64,000 bases of DNA from Minisyncoccota bacterium (GTDB lineage: Bacteria; Patescibacteriota; Minisyncoccia; Moranbacterales; UBA1568), in the NCBI GenBank assembly GCA_051306005.1, contig JBPPMJ010000002.1, forward strand, positions 437 through 64,436, written 5' to 3'. Below are positions 244 through 38,111 of the stretch, one piece after another. The notes beneath the pieces were generated by a model. That model did no database searches. It was not told where the DNA came from and was given only the letters and a program-made list of their open reading frames with translations. Within the stretch, counting starts at the first letter, position 1. Every line of letters starts with the position of its first letter. The translations under genes and the position numbers were made by a program.

Positions 244-1260
244 CTATACTGTCCCCGATTCAACTACAGAAACCTCTACGTCCATCTGATCTGCTCTTAC
301 TCTCGCTTGAACGCCTAGCGGTAAAGTTATCATAGGGGTTGTATGTCCAAAATCAACATCCGCCACAATCGGGATGCCGTATTTTTCTCCAAAAAACAGT
401 AAGATATCATCAAGAGTCCGTTCTTGTGAGTCGGTTGAAAACTGGTACGGCCTTCCAAAAATTATGCCGCGAATACGCTTGAAAATGCCTATTTGTTCAA
501 GATAAAATAATCTTCTTTCGGTGTAAGCTGTACCTTCTCCTTCATCTTCTAAAAAAAGTATCGCGTCCGTGAAATCAGGCATGAACTCTGTCCCTCCCAG
601 CATACATAAGGTATTCAGATTGCCTCCCATCAGGATGCCCTCAGCGTTTCCATAATTCACAGCACGCATGGGTTGCACTGCAGCAAGCTGGCTTGGACGA
701 CTATCTTCTGTCTCCCACCAAAGATTCTCGTCAGTAGATTCTCTGGCTGATTCCAATGTTCCAATCGGTTTATTGGAAAACAACGCTTTTTTAAAATAAT
801 CAGCTGTGAACTCATGGATACCCCCATACTCACCGAAAGTCGGCAGAACTGTTGGCCCATTAAAAGTAATGAGCCTGGCTTTATGCAAAATAGCATTATT
901 CAAAACAGTGATATCACTGTATCCGCAGAAAATTTTTGGATTCCTTCTCATCAAATCGTAGTCTAGCAGGGGCAGTACGGCATTCGCATTCAATCCGCCA
1001 GTAGAGCAGATGATCGCTTTCACGGAAGGGTCTACAAACATTGCATGGATATCATCGGCCCTCTCTTCCGGAGTTCCGGCATTATGTCCGAAAGACTTTT
1101 TTGCATTTTTAGCAATAACTACCCTAAGACTGAGTTTTTCAAGAGATTCGATACCACGCAACAGTCTTCTCGGAAAAACATTGATCGTGGAAGATGGGCT
1201 GACAATGCCGACTGTGTCACCAATGCTCAAATGGGATGGCTTGATATAATGTGTCATCAT
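244..1260 (-). CDS. LD-carboxypeptidase (peptidase S66, LdcA/MccF family)
   Basis: 338 aa. GYSDIT motif around the nucleophilic Ser and overall S66 layout (N-terminal IVSPSS, C-terminal His/Glu region). Standard length for this family. Confidence 0.8.
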   Translation of the reverse strand: MMTHYIKPSHLSIGDTVGIVSPSSTINVFPRRLLRGIESLEKLSLRVVIAKNAKKSFGHNAGTPEERADDIHAMFVDPSVKAIICSTGGLNANAVLPLLDYDLMRRNPKIFCGYSDITVLNNAILHKARLITFNGPTVLPTFGEYGGIHEFTADYFKKALFSNKPIGTLESARESTDENLWWETEDSRPSQLAAVQPMRAVNYGNAEGILMGGNLNTLCMLGGTEFMPDFTDAILFLEDEGEGTAYTERRLFYLEQIGIFKRIRGIIFGRPYQFSTDSQERTLDDILLFFGEKYGIPIVADVDFGHTTPMITLPLGVQARVRADQMDVEVSVVESGTV

Positions 1261-2090
1261 ACTCTCTCTGTTAAAAATAACTCCGTCTCGTCTTTTATAT
1301 CTCTTTTTTGATACAGCAATATCGAATAGCCCGCATACTTTAAATTCTCATTAAAAAGCGCGTAAAAATATGTCGCTCGATCCCTAATGTGACTCCTCTG
1401 CTCTTCAGTCAAATCGGAAAATTTTCCTTTCAATAAGATATCGACGTAGGATTCAATCTCGTTTTCAACATCCAGATATATATTGTCTTCCTCATAAAAA
1501 AATTCGAGTATTTGTGCATTCTTATCAGCAACAGTCTCAAACAAGGCTTTCCAGGATTTTTTGTCTCTGATTGTTAAAGGCGTTCCAATCGTCTCCGATA
1601 CTTTCTCAACAACATCCTTCGGCGGAGTTTCTCGGTAATAGATAGGAACAACCGCAAGAATGCCGCCAGGCTTCAAAACCCGAAAATATTCGGAAATCGC
1701 TTTCTCTTTATCGGATATAAAAGAAGTGACATTACTGCACCAGACCAAATCAAAAGCATTATCTTCAAACGGAAGCTTAATAGCATCAGCCTTCAAGAAA
1801 GCAACTCTCTCATAAACCCCCTGGGCTTTAGCATATGCTCTCGCTTCAGTAATAGATGTTTCATTTACGTCTACCCCGACTACCCCGCAGCCAGTCAAAA
1901 GACTAAGATTCACGCTCGTAAATCCAGTATTGCTCCCAATCTCAAGTACTCTTCTGGAAGGATTTATAAAAGCATTGACTGCAACAGAATGTACGGTCTT
2001 TATACCTCCAGATGGTCGATTTCTCTCTTTGATAAAACCAACAAATTCAGAATAATTCATTTGCTCAATATTCTGTACCATATGATTCAT
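1257..2090 (-). CDS. Class I SAM-dependent methyltransferase
   Basis: VLEIGSNTGFTSVNL...GVDVNE glycine-rich SAM-binding motif I, acidic motif II (VVGVDVNE), LKPGGIL motif. 4-nt overlap with the upstream gene. Confidence 0.75.
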   Translation of the reverse strand: MNHMVQNIEQMNYSEFVGFIKERNRPSGGIKTVHSVAVNAFINPSRRVLEIGSNTGFTSVNLSLLTGCGVVGVDVNETSITEARAYAKAQGVYERVAFLKADAIKLPFEDNAFDLVWCSNVTSFISDKEKAISEYFRVLKPGGILAVVPIYYRETPPKDVVEKVSETIGTPLTIRDKKSWKALFETVADKNAQILEFFYEEDNIYLDVENEIESYVDILLKGKFSDLTEEQRSHIRDRATYFYALFNENLKYAGYSILLYQKRDIKDETELFLTERV

Positions 2091-2099
2091 GATATATAT

Positions 2100-3257
2100 T
2101 TACGGTTTAGGGAGATGATGTCCGCGTGGAATATGAGTCGCTTCCCATATATATGGCAACTGCAATACCCATTGCACATACCGCTGCCATCCGAGACCGA
2201 AACCAGAAGTTTTTTGGTAATCCTCCTGAAGCCTCGTCTGAATATACGGATCATAGTCTCCCGTCGGCAGGTTGAATGCCTTTGCCTTCTCCCTCAGTGC
2301 TTCCGGACTTGAGATGCGACTTCCGCTACCGACTGTCTCGCGATAGCCACACAAGATGAAATCCGCATTCTCGGCAAGCGGAACACCGCCCTCATCCCCT
2401 TCAAGTTCGTTATGGTAGAAAGGAATCTGCAAAAGCGGAAATTTCGTCACAATGACGTGTTTACCGAATATCTCCGTAAGCTTTATTTCTTCCCATGCAC
2501 CGAAGTTTTTTAGACTGAACTCCTTGTACATATCATCTCCCGTTTCCTTATGGAGAGCTTCAAGCGCATCCTTGAAGGTGATTGTAATGATATTTCCCTC
2601 TGAAAAAGCCTCTGTGAGCTCTTCTACCTTTGCATCGCCAATAAAATATCTCAAACTTTTCCTCTCGTTATCCGTGAGGTATTTCGTAATATAACGCACG
2701 AGGCCAAGAAAAATATCGATATTCTGGTCGAAAGAAACTTTTCCCTCGAATTCGATGTGCTGAAATTCCGAAAGGTGACAAAAGTCTGCTTTTTCTTTTC
2801 TGAACGAATTGTATATAGAAAAAACCTTATCGATGTTCTGTGTCAAAAGTCTCAACTCGAGATAGAATTGTGAACTTTCCGAAAGGAAAATATTCCGCTC
2901 ATTGTCGAACCACGATATGTCGACTGGAAGCGTATCAGTCGTATAATCTAGCGTTTTTCCAGCATACACTTCCCCCGGAGATGAAATCATGAGCGTCGTA
3001 AGAGGGAGATTGCACCACTCAGCACCGATCGATCGGAAGTATTCCACTGCTCCGAAAAATATCCCGTTGTCTATCTTGTGGAGATGATAAAAATATTCCG
3101 GATCCTGAAAAATCTTCGCAATCCTTCCCGTCGTGATCTCTTCGTTGAAATCGGATTCTTTGACATTTTCAATTGGTTGAAAAACGCTATTACCGTTATA
3201 CTTGATCCGCTTCTTGCCGTCATCAGATAGAGCTGAATACAGGCCAAGATTATTCAT
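2100..3257 (-). CDS. Class II aminoacyl-tRNA-synthetase-like catalytic-domain protein (AsnRS/AspRS/AsnA family); likely start at the internal Met, because the ORF-track N-terminus reads through an intergenic repeat
   Basis: Motif 2-like SFRKEKADFCHLSEFQHIEFEG (fRxE...HxxEFxxxE) and motif 3-like GFGLGWQRYVQWVL. No N-terminal OB/anticodon-binding domain is visible in about 386 aa. The ORF-track start at 3428 translates the repeat at 3316-3390, so I trimmed to the ATG at 3255-3257. Confidence 0.6.
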   Translation of the reverse strand: MNNLGLYSALSDDGKKRIKYNGNSVFQPIENVKESDFNEEITTGRIAKIFQDPEYFYHLHKIDNGIFFGAVEYFRSIGAEWCNLPLTTLMISSPGEVYAGKTLDYTTDTLPVDISWFDNERNIFLSESSQFYLELRLLTQNIDKVFSIYNSFRKEKADFCHLSEFQHIEFEGKVSFDQNIDIFLGLVRYITKYLTDNERKSLRYFIGDAKVEELTEAFSEGNIITITFKDALEALHKETGDDMYKEFSLKNFGAWEEIKLTEIFGKHVIVTKFPLLQIPFYHNELEGDEGGVPLAENADFILCGYRETVGSGSRISSPEALREKAKAFNLPTGDYDPYIQTRLQEDYQKTSGFGLGWQRYVQWVLQLPYIWEATHIPRGHHLPKP

Positions 3258-3315
3258 ATTGATACTATTGATAAAAAATTTCCTTATTGAAAGAAAAAAA
3301 ACGCTACATTCCGTG

Positions 3316-3390
3316 GCGATTTTTCCCTTCCCTCTGGCCTTCCCCACGGATGGGAAACAGTCACTTGAGAAATACTGATGTTGGCTCCGC
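3316..3390 (-). repeat. About 75-nt diverged copy (mostly transitions; roughly 80% identity by eye, not computed) of the tRNA-Asn 3' trailer, ending in a 9-nt remnant of the tRNA-Asn 3' end (TGGCTCCGC); homologous to 14773-14858
   Basis: Aligned by eye: cacggatgggaaacagtcacttgagaaatactgatgttggctccgc here against cacggataggaaaccggtcacttgagaaatactgatgttggctccggcg immediately 3' of tRNA-Asn. Confidence 0.6.
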
Positions 3391-3511
3391 TTGCTGAACA
3401 CTATTAGAACTTCTATACAGGAAAACAAGAAATCAAAGTTCTACTACTTCGGACTCAAAAACTTCCTTACTCAACACGTGTAAGTTTTACCCCATCCTGC
3501 TCTACACTATT
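3385..3511 (-). repeat. About 125-nt conserved intergenic element, copy 1 of 2 (second copy 7355-7483), with a conserved hairpin with a CUGUAUA loop and covarying stem
   Basis: Shared blocks ctgaacactattagaacYtctatacagga ... caaagttctactactt ... gtgtaa..tttacccc. Stem cctc/gagg in copy 2 against (c)ttc/gaa(a) in copy 1 suggests compensatory change. Confidence 0.55.
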
Positions 3512-4003
3512 GTTCAAAGCCAGTTTTATCTTCTCTGAAAACTCGCTTGGGCTGAAACTTCCGTGATTTTCCAGTCTCAACAGTGGTACTCTCGCCTCAC
3601 GAAGAATGCGCTCCACTTCTTCATCGCGTTCTATTCTTTCTGGACGCTTATGCGACTTGTCATCAAGTTCGATGGCAAGTTTTGGTGAAAGATACGTCTT
3701 GTCGCATAGAACAAAATCAACTGACTTCTCGCTGATATGACGGAACGCACCGTGCCAATTCTGTCCGACAACCTTGCTGTCCACCAATGTAGGGAGATGC
3801 ACTTGAGCGAAAATCCGATATTCCTGTCCAACCGCTTCTACCAGAGTATCGTAGCATTTGTGTTCGGCTCGAGTAAGGAAAAAATCTTTGTGCTTATATT
3901 GATACTTCGCCTTTACTTTCATATTTCCAAGCTTCCCGCGCACGATACCAAATATCAAAACAATGAGGGCTACACTGCCGAAAAGAATATAGAGATTTTT
4001 CAT
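3467..4003 (-). CDS. DUF2726-domain protein (predicted PD-(D/E)xK-like nuclease fold), N-terminal membrane anchor
   Basis: 178 aa. N-terminal TM helix (LYILFGSVALIVLIFGIV). The AEHKCYDTLVEAVGQEYRIFAQVHL...DFVLCDK...IELDDKSH core is typical of DUF2726. Confidence 0.55.
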   Translation of the reverse strand: MKNLYILFGSVALIVLIFGIVRGKLGNMKVKAKYQYKHKDFFLTRAEHKCYDTLVEAVGQEYRIFAQVHLPTLVDSKVVGQNWHGAFRHISEKSVDFVLCDKTYLSPKLAIELDDKSHKRPERIERDEEVERILREARVPLLRLENHGSFSPSEFSEKIKLALNNSVEQDGVKLTRVE

Positions 4004-4217
4004 AGATTTTTTATTATATTTAAAGACTGGTTCGGGTTCGCTTTCAGGTCAATGAGTATGAACTTGTCCAAAGCTCCCTTTTCAATCAAGGCGTTATGAT
4101 ATGATTTCTAAAAATTGAGCTCTACAGTCTTATCAGAATTTTGATTACTGTGAAAAACTCATTCAAAAATTTCTTAGCAAATAAAAAGGCCTACATTGGG
4201 TTAATTTTTTATCCTTA

Positions 4218-4754
4218 TTACAATAACTTTAGAAAGTCTAATCCCAAGTAACCCACTTCAACATCCGTCATTTCTCCACTACGGAGTATCTCTCTAAATT
4301 CTTCAATGGTTTTGGTAACAATCTCTACATACTCCCCTTCGTCAAGTTTTTGTTCAGAAGTCTCCTTACAATCAGTTGCGACAAAACAATAACGAAGCAT
4401 GGTTGAGTAAGCATCGTCAGAGCACGTGCCTACAAATTGGATATTTCCTTCATAACCAGTTTCTTCTTTAAGTTCTCGTGCTGCTGAAAATTCTGGCTTT
4501 TCGTTGGCATCTAAATATCCTCCTGGAAGCTCATAGAACACTTTCTGAGGACCGGGACGAAATTGCTTCGCAAGAATAACATTTTTCTCTACATCTAAAG
4601 CCAGTACCGCTACCGCCGGACCTTCTTTTTTAATATAGAAATCGCTTTCTTTTCCATCAGGTAACTCAAATATCACTTTTTCAATTTTTCGGCTATATTT
4701 TTGAAATGCTATTTCACGCGACATTTCAATCCATTCCTTCTTTTTTTCTACCAT
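4218..4754 (-). CDS. NUDIX hydrolase
   Basis: Nudix box ELPGGYLDANEKPEFSAARELKEETGY (GX5EX7REUXEEXGU). Confidence 0.8.
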   Translation of the reverse strand: MVEKKKEWIEMSREIAFQKYSRKIEKVIFELPDGKESDFYIKKEGPAVAVLALDVEKNVILAKQFRPGPQKVFYELPGGYLDANEKPEFSAARELKEETGYEGNIQFVGTCSDDAYSTMLRYCFVATDCKETSEQKLDEGEYVEIVTKTIEEFREILRSGEMTDVEVGYLGLDFLKLL

Positions 4755-4912
4755 AAAATTTCTTGACTATACTATCAATCTAGCAGAAAATAAGTAAAAA
4801 GAAAAGAACATTATTATATAATTGTACAACGATGTTTTTTATTTTTTGTAAAAACGACCTTATAACTATCCTCAAAATCCGTGCATCTTCTCTAAAACCC
4901 ACGTTCAAACAA

Positions 4913-5173
4913 AGTGAGGCATTTTCCTTTCAGATCGCAACTGACAATCAGGAAGAGACGGATCGTTATTGGAACGCGATCGTCGAAAATGGCGGTCAGG
5001 AAAGTGAGTGTGGTTGGTGCAAGGACCGCTGGGGAATATCCTGGCAAATCACGCCACGCACGCTGACTGACGCCCTTGCAGCTGGTGGAGCTGAAGCAAA
5101 ACGCGCTTTCGAAGCGATGATGCCCATGGGAAAAATCGATGTCGCCGCTATTGAAGCAGCTCGGCGGGACTAA
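4913..5173 (+). pseudogene. C-terminal ~85-aa fragment of a PhnB-like/VOC-superfamily protein (PF06983-type); N-terminal ~70 aa missing; GC-rich relative to surroundings
   Basis: AFSFQIATDNQEETDRYWNAIVENGGQESECGWCKDRWGISWQITPRTL...MPMGKIDVAAIEAA matches the conserved C-terminal half (..EEvD.yW..L..GG.e..CGWlKDkfGvSWQIvP...KID...l) of ~155-aa PhnB-like proteins. About 4950-5180 is visibly GC-rich, and the antisense frame is also open. Confidence 0.55.
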
Positions 5174-5286
5174 GACCGCCCACCGACTCAAGATTCTAGC
5201 ATCCTCTCTGAGATAATAACGGGTATTAAACCCGATTTTACCGGCACTCGCTCGGAAACGAAAGTAAACTTTCGCTTCACTCACTT

Positions 5287-5316
5287 CGTTTGGTAATAAA
5301 AAGAGGCTCATGTAAG
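5287..5316. terminator. Bidirectional intrinsic terminator between the convergent PhnB fragment and ddl
   Basis: aaaaaGAGGCTcatgtaAGCCTCtttttt: a 6-bp GC-rich stem with A-run and T-run flanks. Confidence 0.6.
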
Positions 5317-5374
5317 CCTCTTTTTTCAATGCTCCGAGCAATGGAAGAAGTTCGAACCGCGTTCATAAAACCCA

Positions 5375-6412
5375 TTACTTCCGACGAAGTGCCGTCGCGA
5401 TGAGTTCATCAAGCACATCGCTCGTATTCATCCCGGTCGCTTCCCAAAGTTTCGGGTACATACTGATCGATGTAAAGCCCGGCAAAGTGTTTATCTCATT
5501 CACGAAAATATCCAATGATTCCGTAACGAAGAAATCCACACGAGCCAAACCGGAGCACTCCAATGCTCGGAAAACACTCACGGAAAGTTCCTTTATCTTC
5601 TCTATTGTTCTTTCTGGAAGATCGGCCGGTATCTGCAACTTCGCACCCTCCGGATCAAGATACTTGGCGTCGTAGGAATAGAATTCATGCAACGGAATAA
5701 CCTCGCCCGGAAGCGATGCCTGAATGCCGTTTTTCCCTTCAAGTACCGAGCATTCTATCTCTCGACCGACTATGGTTTTCTCAAAAAGAATTTTGCAGTC
5801 ATTCTGAAAAGCGTCTTTCACAGCTTGCGGAAATTCTTCAACCGAATGTACCTTGGTGATGCCGACCGATGACCCGAGCGAGGCTGGTTTCACGAAAAAC
5901 GGTACACCGAGCGACTTAGCAATCGTTTCAAAATCGACATCATCACCCCTTCTCGCGACCAAATATTCTCCGATCGAAATACCTTCCACGGAAAGCAGTC
6001 GCTTCATCACTTCCTTGTCCATACCCAAGGCCGATCCAAGAACTCCCGAACCGACATACGGAAGATGCATCATCTCCAGAAGCCCCTGAAGCGACCCATC
6101 CTCACCATAAGTGCCGTGAATAATCGGAAAAGCAACATTTGCCGAAAAAATCTTTTTATCTGACAAAGAAATAAAATGCCCTTCTTGACCGAAAACGGGA
6201 GCGATTTCATCCAGCTCACCATCCTTTCCACTCTCGGAAAAATTCGGAAAGCCGTCCGGGCAGCGGAACCATTTCCCCTCTTTCGTCACATACACAGGAA
6301 TGACCGCATATCTTTGAATGAGATTTTCAAAAATGCTCTGAGCGGAGCGGATCGAAACCTCGTACTCGACCGATTGACCGCCGAAGATCAACATTATGGA
6401 AAGTTTGTTCAT
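5375..6412 (-). CDS. ddl: D-alanine--D-alanine ligase
   Basis: 345 aa. N-terminal LIFGGQSVEYEVS, ATP-grasp core, C-terminal EINTLPGFTSISMYPKLWEATG; canonical Ddl. Confidence 0.9.
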   Translation of the reverse strand: MNKLSIMLIFGGQSVEYEVSIRSAQSIFENLIQRYAVIPVYVTKEGKWFRCPDGFPNFSESGKDGELDEIAPVFGQEGHFISLSDKKIFSANVAFPIIHGTYGEDGSLQGLLEMMHLPYVGSGVLGSALGMDKEVMKRLLSVEGISIGEYLVARRGDDVDFETIAKSLGVPFFVKPASLGSSVGITKVHSVEEFPQAVKDAFQNDCKILFEKTIVGREIECSVLEGKNGIQASLPGEVIPLHEFYSYDAKYLDPEGAKLQIPADLPERTIEKIKELSVSVFRALECSGLARVDFFVTESLDIFVNEINTLPGFTSISMYPKLWEATGMNTSDVLDELIATALRRK

Positions 6413-6432
6413 AATATATAAAGTATATAAAA

Positions 6433-6470
6433 AGACGGATATCTGCAGGAAATTCTAGCAGTACCCGTCT
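6433..6470. terminator. Hairpin with flanking A/T runs between ddl and the dipeptidase gene
   Basis: AGACGG-(26 nt)-CCGTCT followed by tcttttttt on the plus strand, and by ttttatata on the minus strand. Confidence 0.35.
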
Positions 6471-6502
6471 GAGTTGTCCATCTTTTTTTCAACATTGGAT
6501 CC

Positions 6503-7345
6503 TTATTTAGTCCAATGGTCTCCCAACAAACGATCTTCATGAGTCATTTCCGGTGGCTCTGCAACAGAATATATCGCCGCACCACCCGTCACCAGAGCAT
6601 CCATTTGATTTCCAGAGTTATAGTGCCATATTTCAGGTCCATAAGCGGAGAATCCCGCTCGCGTCATAGCATCCAAGAGGATGTTTCTGTGTAACGAAAC
6701 TGCACGGTCATTGCCGGGGAATCTCTTTCTCCTTAGTTTCAAATGATAAAACGCTCCTGAATTCTCCTCCATCCAGTCAAATGGAACGCCCAGTGTAACC
6801 GGGGATCCATTTTTATATAGCCAGACATCAACGGATCCGCCCGTAAGATGAGGACTTGGTTGCATTGGATCATCCGAAGGCCAGCTTACGTACGAACGAT
6901 TAGCCTGCTTCAACATTTCCCGAGTCGGCGGAGACAATCCATCAAACACTGCTTTGATTTCATCTGCCGTTACCGCTTCCTTGAAAATTCCCTCCAAATG
7001 AAACTTGGAAACGGTGAATTTCTTCAGGTAAGTCCAGAAAAGATTCTCTTGAACCGACACTGGTCTCCATCCATCGTACACATGCAAATCGAAGCCTTGC
7101 TGTTGCACAATACTTCTTGCAACAAGAAATTTATCCAGTACCGACTTCCGCAAAAAGATCCGGAAATCATCGGTAAGCGACATTTCAACAGCGTAAAATG
7201 GATAACAGAGCAATCGATCGACTTGAACAAGCGGTTCTTCACTTTCTTTTATCGGAATATTCCGCCAGTCACCACGAAAACGGTATGCGGAAAGTGTTTT
7301 GAAACGAATCAATTGAGCTTTAAGCCCCAATACAATTCTGTTCAT
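6503..7345 (-). CDS. Peptidase M15 family D-Ala-D-Ala dipeptidase/carboxypeptidase (VanX/VanY-like)
   Basis: SxHxxGxAxD-type zinc motif (HLTGGSVDVW) and YDGWRP..VQ. Start trimmed to MNRIVLGL (ATG 7343-7345), which has a GGAGG Shine-Dalgarno 8 nt upstream. The ORF-track start lies inside the repeat element. Confidence 0.65.
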   Translation of the reverse strand: MNRIVLGLKAQLIRFKTLSAYRFRGDWRNIPIKESEEPLVQVDRLLCYPFYAVEMSLTDDFRIFLRKSVLDKFLVARSIVQQQGFDLHVYDGWRPVSVQENLFWTYLKKFTVSKFHLEGIFKEAVTADEIKAVFDGLSPPTREMLKQANRSYVSWPSDDPMQPSPHLTGGSVDVWLYKNGSPVTLGVPFDWMEENSGAFYHLKLRRKRFPGNDRAVSLHRNILLDAMTRAGFSAYGPEIWHYNSGNQMDALVTGGAAIYSVAEPPEMTHEDRLLGDHWTK

Positions 7346-7354
7346 GGTTAAACT

Positions 7355-7483
7355 CCTCCGCCTACTGAACACTATTAGAACCTCTATACAGGAGGATAAA
7401 GCCTCAAAGTTCTACTACTTTAGCTTGAAAAGGTTTATGGAACAAGGTGTGTAAAACTTACCCCACCCCGCTATTCACTATAG
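7355..7483 (-). repeat. About 125-nt conserved intergenic element, copy 2 (see 3385-3511); sits between the Fic stop and the dipeptidase start
   Basis: Same blocks as copy 1: ctgaacactattagaacctctatacaggagg ... cctcaaagttctactactt ... gtgtaaaacttacccc. Confidence 0.55.
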
Positions 7484-7490
7484 TAAAACA

Positions 7491-36256: not shown

Positions 36257-37822
36257 TCAATATTTTCGTTTTCTGTCTTTCCTGCATCTCGTCTGATAGT
36301 CTGCTTTGTTCCACGTGGAACATTTTCGTATTTCTTTTGGAATTGTTCCACGTGGAACAAAGAAACCATACCAAATAACCATAAAAAAGAAAAAGAGAAA
36401 TGCTAATAGACCTATAATGCCTGTTTCAGCGAAAATTAAGAGTAAAACATTGTGAATAGGTTGATATTGCCATTCTAATAACTGCTCTGAAAAAAATAAT
36501 TGCATAGTCAAAACATATTGTCCTATGCCCACTCCCTGAAAAAAAACTTCTTGAGAAATCTTGGAAAGTGACTTGATGTAAAAAATGCGCTCTGTTAAAG
36601 GTTGTATTAAAAGATATATTGGATCACTCAATAACCAGAGAGCGCTTATGAAAATAACACTCCCTATAAAAAAGTAATGTTCCACGTGGAACATTTTTTG
36701 GAATCTTTGGTGGAAGAGTAGTATTTTTCCATAAATGTTCCACGTGGAACATTTATTAAAAATTTGAACAGTAAAAGAAAAGGATGTTCCACGTGGAACA
36801 TTTTTTGGAATCTTTGGTGGAAGAGTAGTATTTTTCCATAAATGTTCCACGTGGAACATTTTTTGTAAACAAAACAAGAAGTACAACATACCAAGAAAAT
36901 AGCCTATTAAAGCAGATTTAGAGAAACTTATACATAAACCAGCTAGTTGCACAAAAAGAATTCCTCGATATAACCATTTATGTTCCACGTGGAACATTTG
37001 AGAAAATAATAAACGGTACGCAAAGGTCATTAGTAGTGCTAAAGCCATAAAACCACCAAAAATATTCGGATGCGGAAAAAAGGCATAGCCACGAATAAAA
37101 ACATCCCCATTAAGTATTATCTTGGCAATTCCTGGTTTATCAGGCGCAAGAATACTTTCATGAAAAAAAGTAATGCCCAAAGATCTTTGATACAGAAACT
37201 GTAATACACCTATAAATGACTGTATTAAAGCAGAAAAAATAATGGATGTCATAATGATACGATAAATGTTCCACGTGGAACATTTATTCAAAATTTGAAC
37301 GATTAAAGAAAGGAATGTTCCACGTGGAACATAATTTATTGTACATTTCTTATGTTCCACGTGGAACATAAGAATACTTTTATCCAATGTTCCATGTGGA
37401 ACATTGGATAAAAGTATATAAACATAGAGTCCATAACCTTCTAGAATGTGTAGCCAAGCTGAAAAAGCCAACGGAATGCTTTCTGACCAAAAAATAGATG
37501 TTGCTGACCATACTAGAAAAAAGATAGGCATCATTAATGGTAGAAATAAATGTTCCACGTGGAACATTCTTCTCCAGTATTCTATTGACAAAATATATCT
37601 TTTATTGTTTATTATGAATAATAGGATAGTGGATAAAAGGAGAATATCAGAAAGATATATTGAAATATCTTTATATTCATTAAATGTACCCGAAGAAGAA
37701 ACATTAATCAGTACTTTTCGCACAGAAAAAGGGAGTGAGAAAAGAAAAAGGATAAAAAGTATCCTGTGTCGCAAGAAATAATGTTGCGCTTGTTGAATTT
37801 GTAAAAAAGGAAGGAAAATCAT
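36257..37822 (-). CDS. O-antigen ligase (Wzy_C) family membrane protein carrying multiple in-frame palindromic-repeat insertions; intact versus pseudogene unresolved
   Basis: Wzy_C-like blocks ISFSKSALIGYFLGMLYF and HNVLLLIFAETGIIGLLAF are separated by repeat-derived peptides MFHVEH, NVPRGT and KCSTWNI (the three frames of ATGTTCCACGTGGAACAT). The ORF-track N-terminus (to 38014) runs antisense through tRNA-Ala, so I trimmed to the first Met beyond it. Confidence 0.5.
   Translation of the reverse strand: MIFLPFLQIQQAQHYFLRHRILFILFLFSLPFSVRKVLINVSSSGTFNEYKDISIYLSDILLLSTILLFIINNKRYILSIEYWRRMFHVEHLFLPLMMPIFFLVWSATSIFWSESIPLAFSAWLHILEGYGLYVYILLSNVPHGTLDKSILMFHVEHKKCTINYVPRGTFLSLIVQILNKCSTWNIYRIIMTSIIFSALIQSFIGVLQFLYQRSLGITFFHESILAPDKPGIAKIILNGDVFIRGYAFFPHPNIFGGFMALALLMTFAYRLLFSQMFHVEHKWLYRGILFVQLAGLCISFSKSALIGYFLGMLYFLFCLQKMFHVEHLWKNTTLPPKIPKNVPRGTSFSFTVQIFNKCSTWNIYGKILLFHQRFQKMFHVEHYFFIGSVIFISALWLLSDPIYLLIQPLTERIFYIKSLSKISQEVFFQGVGIGQYVLTMQLFFSEQLLEWQYQPIHNVLLLIFAETGIIGLLAFLFFFFMVIWYGFFVPRGTIPKEIRKCSTWNKADYQTRCRKDRKRKY
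36308..37565. repeat. Array of 12 copies of an 18-22 bp perfect palindrome (A)ATGTTCCACGTGGAACAT(T), 14-mer core GTTCCACGTGGAAC
   Basis: Core copies at 36308, 36345, 36679, 36737, 36786, 36843, 36982, 37268, 37307, 37344 and 37552, plus a CATG-centre variant at 37389 embedded in the 32-bp palindrome ttatccaatgttccatgtggaacattggataa. All lie inside one ORF. The palindrome is stop-free in all six frames. Confidence 0.9.
36678..36843. repeat. 108-bp tandem direct duplication inside the palindrome array (58-nt unit at 36678-36735 and 36786-36843)
   Basis: atgttccacgtggaacattttttggaatctttggtggaagagtagtatttttccataa occurs twice, separated by a 50-nt palindrome-containing spacer that itself resembles 37265-37322. 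Confidence 0.85.
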
Positions 37823-37924
37823 AAATATTTTTATAACAAAGCAGTTTGTACTACCATCAAGACGAAAGAGAGTCCATTGACGAATACCTAAAATAACCGT
37901 TATGATAAGAAAAAGGTGCGCAAA

Positions 37925-37997
37925 GGGCCGTTGGCGCAGTTGGTAGCGCGCCTCCATGGCATGGAGGAGGTCGCCGGTTCGAATCCGGCACGGTCCA
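37925..37997 (+). tRNA. tRNA-Ala (anticodon GGC), no encoded CCA
   Basis: Acceptor GGGCCGT with the G3:U70 Ala identity pair; anticodon stem-loop CCTCC-atGGCat-GGAGG; T-arm GCCGGTTCGAATCCGGC. Confidence 0.85.
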
Positions 37998-38111
37998 CAC
38001 ATCAACTCTCTCATATACTGTCAAACATCGCAATCTTGATTACAACTTATTTAATCGTATTCCATTATAATAAAAAGTTTATTTTTACTAAAATATATCT
38101 TTGACATATCA

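Follow-up and report, generated by a model that had tools for sequence, protein, structure and literature searches.

Cis-mobilizable elements (CIMEs), described for the ICESt1/ICESt3 family, are flanked by attachment (att) sites and lack an integrase. Integron attC sites contain R'' (RYYYAAC) and R' (GTTRRRY) boxes, with the cassette boundary in R', and clusters of attC sites lacking integrases are termed CALINs. Xer-dependent modules include the integrative mobile elements exploiting Xer (IMEX) at dif and the pdif modules of Acinetobacter plasmids; their sites are about 28 bp long with 11-6-11 arms, and their movement is attributed to a tyrosine recombinase of the host. Enterobacterial repetitive intergenic consensus (ERIC) sequences, bacterial interspersed mosaic elements built from repetitive extragenic palindromes (BIME/REP), neisserial Correia elements and neisserial intergenic mosaic elements (NIME) are conserved intergenic repeats that are co-transcribed with genes. 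Patescibacteria (Candidate Phyla Radiation, CPR) have tiny genomes with few recognised mobile elements, and their gain of accessory genes is poorly understood. Asn-tRNA genes are described as classic hotspots for genomic islands, for example in Klebsiella (PMC4891358). Here, we analyse a 64,000-nt window from a Minisyncoccota bacterium (the top public match is a Minisyncoccota assembly at 100% identity, and further close matches are labelled Moraniibacteriota or Patescibacteria), in which a composite repeat at 3295-3513 fuses a copy of the tRNA-Asn trailer to a second conserved element. We propose, with about even confidence, that this composite is a junction scar from the serial, core-directed accretion of integrase-less cassettes behind tRNA-Asn. 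All coordinates refer to the window unless a locus is named; tRNA-Asn, the genes and the modules concerned lie on the minus strand, and the elements are therefore read as reverse complements.

Both repeats in the composite had been noticed by eye, and both were recovered when we compared the window with itself and ran blastn against the window and a set of comparison loci (L-numbers). In the repeat search, the trailer copies matched at 3331-3389 and 14797-14855 (86% over 59 nt, ungapped). With blastn (E = 4e-19 to 8e-19), the match covered 102 nt at 80.4% identity and ran from 3289 to 3389 against 14756-14855, in line with the identity of about 80% given in the original prediction. The second element, about 125 nt long, pairs 3385-3513 with 7356-7484 (74% over 129 nt). 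We call the trailer copies T1a and T1b, the spacer T2 and the second element D2; D3 and D4 are further left arms, and a terminator module (termB) plus T2 forms the right arm R1 (Table 1). The tRNA portion in the distal copy measures 8 nt rather than the 9 nt predicted (CGGAGCCA; CCA, the discriminator G and four bases of the acceptor stem). In other genomes, the 3' ends of D2 copies invariably consist of six of these nucleotides (CGGAGC), so the shared stretch is an overlap of two modules and not simply a tRNA remnant.

T1 and D2 are conserved, non-coding module families that are also present in related Patescibacteria metagenome contigs. D2 is thus not private to this genome but belongs to a family 82-90% conserved between genomes. 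The two trailer copies likewise are no duplication in place; they are diverged alleles in which only a head of about 30 nt is identical. Across the core and the first 24 nt of T1, T1a and T1b agree at 30 of 31 positions, while beyond this they are only 67% identical. Beyond the head, T1 of locus L002 matches T1a at 85% and T1b at 76%. An identical head followed by a diverged remainder points to a crossover between diverged molecules. On the tRNA side, homology runs about 60 nt beyond the trailer (through T2a, to about 14700); nothing at 3258-3294 corresponds to this extension.

Table 1. Features of the tRNA-Asn array in the 64,000-nt window.
Feature	Position	Strand	Details
tRNA-Asn (GTT)	14848..14922	-	Intron-less, CCA encoded; ARAGORN, Rfam tRNA 72.9 bits; heads the array
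T1a, tRNA-Asn trailer	14757..14847	-	From sequence, terminator scan and covariation in alignment A3
T2a, spacer with GGATTCGAA motif	14700..14756	-	Before the epimerase gene
Block between T1 copies	3390..14772	-	11.4 kb; absent from L002/L003; without recombinase
D3 left arm	9642..9716	-	Ends cassette 1; 83.5% identical to L002 15451-15541
Core 1	9617..9641	-	Decayed tRNA-Asn 3' fragment (GTTTCAAATCCTATCGCCACTCCCA); T-stem CCTATC kept
D2b, full D2 module	7355..7484	-	nhmmer E = 8e-40; last 28 nt (7355-7382) are core 2; ends cassette 2
Core 3	5331..5358	-	GGTTCGAACTTCTTCCATTGCTCGGAGC; begins 16 nt past the Ddl stop; ends cassette 3
termB-type terminator	5292..5330	-	After core 3, opens cassette 4; right-arm class R1; weak blastn link to L002 termB
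D2a	3384..3513	-	nhmmer E = 1.5e-31; last 28 nt (3384-3411) are core 4; ends cassette 4
T1b, second T1 copy	3295..3383	-	Leader/terminator before AsnRS-like gene
AsnRS-like class II synthetase-core gene	2100..3257	-	Pfam PF00152; no anticodon-binding domain; downstream flank of the array

The block between the trailer copies is missing from a relative with the same flanks, as the original prediction had suggested checking. In L002/L003, dnaG, rpoD, tRNA-Asn, T1, a T2 spacer of about 60 nt and the AsnRS-like gene are consecutive; in the window, the same flanks (dnaG-rpoD-tRNA-Asn on one side, the AsnRS-like gene on the other) lie 11.4 kb apart, and the AsnRS-like proteins are 81% identical. Relative to L002, the 11.4 kb is therefore extra DNA. 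In L002, the spacer separating T1 from the AsnRS-like gene is a homologue of T2a (L002 9840-9990 vs window 14844-14700, 82.9% over 146 nt), which in the window stays on the tRNA side, before the epimerase gene. A deletion between the T1 copies of a window-like order would remove T2, and hence L002 is not a simple deletion derivative. The closest relative of the AsnRS-like gene (L006, 89%) has a T1-like leader without T2, as on the T1b side, and this is the form that we propose for the recipient leader.

The block consists of four or more cassettes in a row, each closed by a degenerate copy of the tRNA-Asn 3' end, which we call a core. Cores are 23-28 nt long and resemble tRNA-Asn from the T-loop through the discriminator (GGTTCNAA ... 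GGAGC); all four are on the tRNA's strand. A relaxed regular expression hit the tRNA end, three cores and one further site that we take as spurious, all on the minus strand, compared with 0.59 hits per 64 kb in mononucleotide shuffles of the window (both strands). Core 1 was not found in this way, and was identified by eye and alignment. Core 3 has a near-identical counterpart in the distant locus L019. The cassettes are 0.6-5 kb long, sometimes with a single gene. Cassette 1 carries the epimerase, a radical SAM (rSAM) protein, ORF328, an AAA_33 kinase-like protein and a GT4 glycosyltransferase; cassette 2 a reverse transcriptase (RT) of the diversity-generating retroelement (DGR) type and Fic; cassette 3 VanX-like and Ddl proteins; and cassette 4 a GC-rich open reading frame (ORF) remnant, NUDIX and DUF2726. 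In a typical cassette, D2, D3 or D4 often precedes the core, and the next cassette or the original trailer starts right after ...GGAGC. The next cassette usually opens with an intrinsic terminator, followed by the T2 motif.

This subdivision bears on the main reading of the original prediction, a single island whose own tyrosine integrase has since been lost, with the T1 copies as attL and attR. Like a classical tRNA island, the block is extra DNA at a tRNA 3' end, absent from L002/L003, with a direct repeat at its far end (3289-3389) that includes the tRNA 3' end. Its GC content is 0.423 vs 0.400, and its tetranucleotide distance is 0.0145 vs 0.0095 +/- 0.0022 for other 11.4 kb segments (about 2.3 standard deviations), a slight deviation by which its composition is only mildly atypical. 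Unlike in a classical island, none of the block's 12 long ORFs encodes an integrase according to Pfam. Its three internal cores, with their own arm modules, divide it into cassettes rather than one old, decayed island; the same arm modules bound other cargo in other genomes; and none of six related arrays has an integrase. A single island is thus improbable: the tRNA-end copies that had been taken as an integration footprint do include the tRNA-Asn 3' end, but they are not the bounds of one island.

To compare junctions across loci, we took 28 of them from 11 loci and clustered their flanks, using 100 nt on the left and 110 nt on the right. Left arms fell into D2 (class L1, 12 junctions), D4 (L2, 4), intron-bearing tRNA-Asn (L3, 3) and D3 (L4, 2), leaving the window's intron-less tRNA-Asn and the remaining left arms unclustered. 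Right arms fell into terminator+T2 (R1, 13), T1 (R2, 5) and R3 (2), the rest being singletons or others. The arms combine freely: D2 is joined to T1 (window, L002), R1 (L005, L088, L091, L092) or R3 (L094); D4 to T1 (L005) or R1 (L092 twice, L094); D3 to R1 (L002); and tRNA-Asn to T1 (window, L002). The switch between arms always lies just past ...GGAGC, with similarity ending at the base after it. The composite of D2, core and T1 is also found in L002, 7.4 kb downstream of tRNA-Asn. The same pair of modules can also enclose different genes. Between T1-T2 and D3-core lie the epimerase/rSAM/GT4 glycan set in the window and the AsnRS-like protein, a methyltransferase, S66, an aminoacyl-tRNA synthetase and rSAM in L002. 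Between termB-T2 and D2-core lie Fic or GT9 (both L092), Fic+ORF127 (L002), Fic+NUDIX (L094) or the content of cassette 4 (window). L092 packs at least 7 junctions into 7 kb, some around single small ORFs, and L019, whose RpoD is 55% identical, has core+terminator(+T2) junctions 2-4 kb downstream of an intron-bearing tRNA-Asn.

The cores linked to D3 show a further pattern. Between rSAM and Fic, L002 has a 23-nt stretch that reproduces the 3' end of its tRNA-Asn perfectly, from T-loop to discriminator, and is followed by a terminator and T2; the ~75 nt of D3 that precede it are 84% identical to window 9624-9714. In each case the T-stem of the core follows that genome's own tRNA-Asn (CCTGCC in L002, CCTATC in the window), and a core matching the resident tRNA indicates that DNA was exchanged with the tRNA gene. 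The abrupt switch between freely combined arms argues for a site-directed recombinase supplied in trans. A switch at the edge of homology, together with cores that follow the resident tRNA, favours site-directed exchange over general homologous recombination. We infer from these alignments that cassettes enter and are reshuffled by recombination at or near the core, with an enzyme acting in trans.

Under this accretion model, D2a and core 4 would be the right end of the last cassette, and T1b would be a trailer/leader that was already present before the AsnRS-like gene. T1a and T2a, behind the tRNA, would have been brought by incoming DNA of an L002-like lineage. This incoming DNA, circular or otherwise recombining, would have carried D2, core and T1 head (plus T2 and cargo). 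A crossover with the chromosomal tRNA-Asn, core and T1 head, inside the segment of about 30 nt now identical at both junctions, would then yield tRNA-T1a...cargo...D2a-T1b. Repeated crossovers could stack cassettes in this way. The tRNA-Asn 3' end may thus be one docking site, with cassettes entering and reshuffling at or next to the core.

We searched for a candidate recombinase with Pfam on ORFs, and with a crude hidden Markov model (HMM) and a regular expression for tyrosine recombinases. Pfam identified no integrase or recombinase among all 12 long ORFs of the block, in agreement with the original prediction that the segment lacks an integrase, and no recombinase among the 32 of 45 long ORFs that were searched in the remaining window. 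The HMM and regular expression found none in the window, L002, L005 or L092. A tyrosine-recombinase-like ORF lies at L008 13886-14995 (minus strand), about 1.7 kb downstream of the intron-bearing tRNA-Asn; this is the sole integrase-like gene seen near any of these tRNA-Asn loci.

A second explanation gives the modules a function as RNA or regulatory elements; they would provide portable homology, and gene blocks would be swapped by homologous recombination after DNA uptake. D2 would then be a 3'-untranslated region or small RNA, often linked to Fic, whose end precedes a terminator. T1 and termB would act in termination or attenuation, T2 would be an operator or a site close to a promoter, and there would be no dedicated recombinase. 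The D2 family offers several points in favour. We identified D2 by blastn in L002/L003, L005 and L008, and by a metagenome pattern scan in L088, L089, L091, L092, L093 and L094; L092 has 2 full copies, a 33-nt 3' fragment and a decayed core. nhmmer with a D2 profile revealed no diverged copies in 80 other rpoD loci, and pattern scans of viral contigs gave no match. The 12 full copies that we aligned have a mean column identity of 85%; D2a is the most diverged, and the copies in other genomes are 82-90% identical to D2b. Every copy is in sense orientation, begins near ATAGTG right after a stop codon and ends in ...GGCGGAGC, where similarity ceases. An intrinsic terminator follows 10-20 nt after 11 of the 12 full copies, and a Fic gene lies directly upstream, or one gene off, in five loci. 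The predicted P1 helix tolerates exchanges between G-U, G-C and A-U on the sense strand, with 91% of cells pairing vs 44-55% in slid controls. The flanks of the Fic genes are 82-92% identical, while the Fic proteins that they enclose share only 25-52% identity.

T1 also fits this explanation. In T1a, a single-stranded conserved head (CAACAUCAGUAUUUCUCAAGUGAC) is combined with a two-tier hairpin, and an intrinsic terminator lies at 14761-14789. The overall fold is a 9-bp two-tier hairpin plus a terminator hairpin. The former contains UUCCU/AGGAA within CCGG/CCGG in T1a (14806-14822) and UUCCC/GGGAA in T1b (3340-3356), where the terminator hairpin is at 3302-3318. In alignment A3 (T1a, T1b and relatives), covariation is clear: 92% of cells are paired vs 41-58% in slid controls, and four pairs are changed on both sides. 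On this evidence T1 is also a putative structured RNA element, which ends the tRNA transcript and precedes the AsnRS-like gene. A single-stranded motif (AUUUCUCA) is invariant in T1a, T1b, L002, L005 and L006. By inspection only, the purine-rich arm of the terminator could pair with this motif or with a downstream U/C tract, suggesting a possible attenuator ahead of the AsnRS-like gene. The failure to find a recombinase in the searched ORFs would also be expected here, and a 30-nt identical head suffices for RecA-type exchange, which would allow this one junction to form.

Against the RNA/regulatory explanation, homologous exchange should break within shared sequence, yet the arms switch exactly at the homology edge after GGAGC. 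The D3-linked cores match each genome's tRNA-Asn, which indicates DNA exchange with the tRNA gene, and cores occur as remnants without a D2 body at L092 8441, L092 7752 and window 5331. The covariation of D2 is statistically weak (2 pairs changed on both sides; 76 of 500 shuffles equally good). At gathering scores, Rfam recognised only tRNAs and the group I intron of relatives across the window, the T1/D2a region and the D2 copies, and even at E <= 10 there was no meaningful match for the T1/D2a region or the D2 copies of L088, L089 and L091. The covariance-model check proposed for the ~125-nt element thus produced no known family, and RNAalifold and pair counts gave weak covariation only. In L008, D2 and its terminator face a convergent gene, so D2 is not a leader there. 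The earlier idea of promoter or leader modules spread by recombination is borne out insofar as the modules are portable and sit at gene boundaries; they are mostly at cassette 3' ends before terminators, however, and not ahead of genes as promoters. We consider the RNA/regulatory explanation plausible though doubtful. The two views are not mutually exclusive.

Several observations count against serial accretion. The comparison loci are all metagenome contigs or metagenome-assembled genomes (MAGs). Anchoring of an array at tRNA-Asn is shown only in the window, L002 and L019, and the 14-17 kb covered for L092 and L005, which include their arrays, contain no tRNA-Asn. Cores of the D2 and D4 types are 28 nt long, 5 nt longer than the 23-nt tRNA segment, and are hence relatives of the tRNA end rather than plain copies. 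Cassette anatomy is not uniform either, since no terminator or T2 follows D2b (where the Shine-Dalgarno sequence and ATG of the VanX-like gene come directly) or core 1 (where the RT gene follows). The modules are far better conserved than the cargo and always share its orientation, cores nearly always have a terminator behind them, and T1 has covariation support as RNA, while that for D2 is weak; the first two of these fit an RNA or regulatory role. Finally, no recombinase, circular form or excision product was seen, which leaves the enzymatic step as one that we infer.

The composite could also be a one-off illegitimate join at the CGGAG microhomology (a Shine-Dalgarno-like D2 end meeting the tRNA end by homology-facilitated illegitimate recombination), a chance similarity or a MAG chimera. 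The D2 and T1 families overlap by only CGGAG(C), and the sequence does derive from a MAG. The same junction, however, occurs independently in L002 with another D2 variant and other cargo, and cores are present at 28 junctions. Repeats of 100-130 nt at 74-80% identity would not mislead an assembler, and the blastn E-values are 1e-17 to 1e-19. We thus find this explanation hardly credible, and we do not regard a one-off microhomology join, an assembly artefact or one decayed island as likely.

Serial accretion of cassettes has its closest parallels in CIMEs and tandem tRNA accretion. In both, insertion is at the tRNA 3' end, copies of which lie between segments without their own recombinase, and content varies among relatives. 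Both also show tandem, recombinase-free segments with att-like bounds, represented here by the window's four cassettes and by L092, where 7 kb contain at least 7 junctions. Unlike in those systems, the cassettes here are very small (0.6-5 kb), and long conserved arm modules (D2, D3, D4, T1 and terminator+T2) are common to several species. At 28 nt, most cores are related to the tRNA end without being exact copies of it, and some arrays show no tRNA nearby. There is also no cognate integrase-bearing element in the loci examined, which are contig fragments with one integrase-like ORF (L008). Our literature search found no paper that reports elements of this kind from Patescibacteria. Accretion of elements without integrases at a tRNA gene is already known, while the conserved junction modules and small cassettes in Patescibacteria are new.

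Integrons and CALINs are similar in a different way: short, co-oriented cassettes each end in a site of conserved architecture, with no integrase in the arrays. The junction module is an imperfect palindrome of about 100 nt. T2 resembles an inverted copy of the core, and when 7 junction modules were folded as single strands, 5 were predicted to pair the core (GGTTCGAA) with T2 (TTCGAACC) around the terminator hairpin. Unlike in attC, TTCGAAC ... GTTCGAA retains only the AAC and GTT triplets of the boxes, and the switch is after GGAGC (the 5' half-site, upstream of the hairpin) rather than in the 3' R' box. The sequence is conserved and not the structure alone, each site contains a terminator, and some arrays are headed by a tRNA, not attI/intI. 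No IntI was found next to the array, either by Pfam on the block and 32 of the 45 other window ORFs or by the HMM and regular expression. Xer-dependent dif/pdif modules resemble the cassettes as integrase-less gene modules bounded by sites of about 28 bp, in alternating orientation (core forward, T2 inverted). The palindromic arms are only weakly present in the cores, with a symmetry of 4-6 of 11 by eye. Unlike dif, the cores show no link to chromosome dimer resolution, and what they resemble is the tRNA end.

More speculatively, the arrays might be an integron-like cassette-capture system in this Patescibacteria clade and at least one distant Parcubacteria lineage. Its junction modules would be the palindromes of about 100 nt (tRNA-Asn-like 28-nt core, terminator hairpin, inverted core), its recombinase would be encoded elsewhere (possibly host Xer), its primary dock would be the tRNA-Asn 3' end, and D2-like arms would be accessory-protein or RNA-level elements. 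We regard this extension as rather unlikely. As intergenic repeats, the modules share with ERIC, BIME, Correia and NIME elements a length of 100-130 nt, a position between genes and often at terminators, transcription with those genes and a cross-species distribution. Unlike these, D2 lacks terminal inverted repeats and target duplications; synteny breaks fall at its ends, and on the 3' side it mimics a tRNA end.

If true, a recurrent, integrase-less cassette array, partly anchored at tRNA-Asn, would provide a concrete mechanism of accessory-gene turnover in CPR bacteria. The cargo here includes glycan-synthesis, cell-wall, Fic, NUDIX and nuclease genes. D2, D3, D4, T1 and termB-T2 could also serve as sequence handles for finding such arrays in metagenomes, and for seeking the recombinase by co-occurrence. 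The arrays carry a warning for annotation as well, since the RT N-terminus and the DUF2726 C-terminus are read-through into junction modules. The last 15 codons of the DUF2726 ORF (3467-3513, minus strand) are encoded by D2a, with the ORF running 47 nt into the repeat to its stop. In the RT (8791-9648, minus strand), the TTG start and first ~10 codons of the listed ORF traverse the decayed tRNA-Asn fragment, and the true start is therefore probably further in. The RT carries a GNLTSQ motif, which is typical of DGR reverse transcriptases, but no template/variable repeat pair was seen in the window. The GC-rich 149-aa ORF (4892-5341, minus strand), previously called a PhnB fragment, starts inside the junction of core 3 and terminator, has no Pfam match and is probably a gene remnant.

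Several other identities for the modules were considered and rejected. D2a and D2b are not a DGR template/variable repeat pair, as they differ at all base types and D2 also occurs in loci without RT. A miniature inverted-repeat transposable element or IS200/IS605-type element does not match D2 either, which has no inverted ends, target duplication, fixed target or transposase, and left flanks that are merely A-rich. As for D2 being an independent promoter-driven gene, TTGCCA-17-TACTAT precedes D2b, but other copies do not conserve the -35 region. The Rfam searches above led us to reject known riboswitches, T-box leaders and small ribozymes. T2 lacks, on inspection, the hexamer pair at constant spacing of a sigma-70 promoter, and TTCGAA is not a DNA-uptake sequence by its frequency (12 copies in the window vs about 20 expected).

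Fic genes preceding D2 are located at window 7491-8675, L002 15689-16768, L092 4087-5139, L094 1348-2409 and L088 72-1127; those in L002, L092 and L094 are also preceded by the common terminator+T2 module. The AsnRS-like gene most likely starts at ATG 3257, where a public 385-aa record also begins, and not at TTG 3428, which heads the longest ORF. Together with a SAM methyltransferase and an S66 LD-carboxypeptidase it forms a conserved three-gene unit (window 244-3257, minus strand; L001, L002, L005, L006). The upstream neighbour of this unit is a different one in each relative (tRNA-Asn, rplA, NUDIX or DsbD), and a full-length class II synthetase is convergent downstream of it in L001 and L002. 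Four relatives have a group I intron in tRNA-Asn, which interrupts the anticodon loop behind CTGT (L002 9134-9848; L007 about 8685-8966; L008 about 11560-12185; L019 about 11979-12615), while the window's tRNA-Asn has none. Rfam RF00028 matches the intron in L007 and L008, and an HNH endonuclease ORF lies within it in L002, L008 and L019. ARAGORN missed tRNA-Asn of L002 because such an intron, with its HNH ORF, splits the anticodon loop.

Elsewhere in the window, 36300-37600 contains at least 10 copies of a perfect 18-bp palindrome (ATGTTCCACGTGGAACAT) in an AT-rich stretch of about 1.6 kb (GC 0.32-0.35) by tRNA-Ala and tRNA-Arg. A 585-aa ORF over the palindromes (36257-38014) looks spurious, so the stretch is probably non-coding; the palindromes could be an origin-like or operator array.

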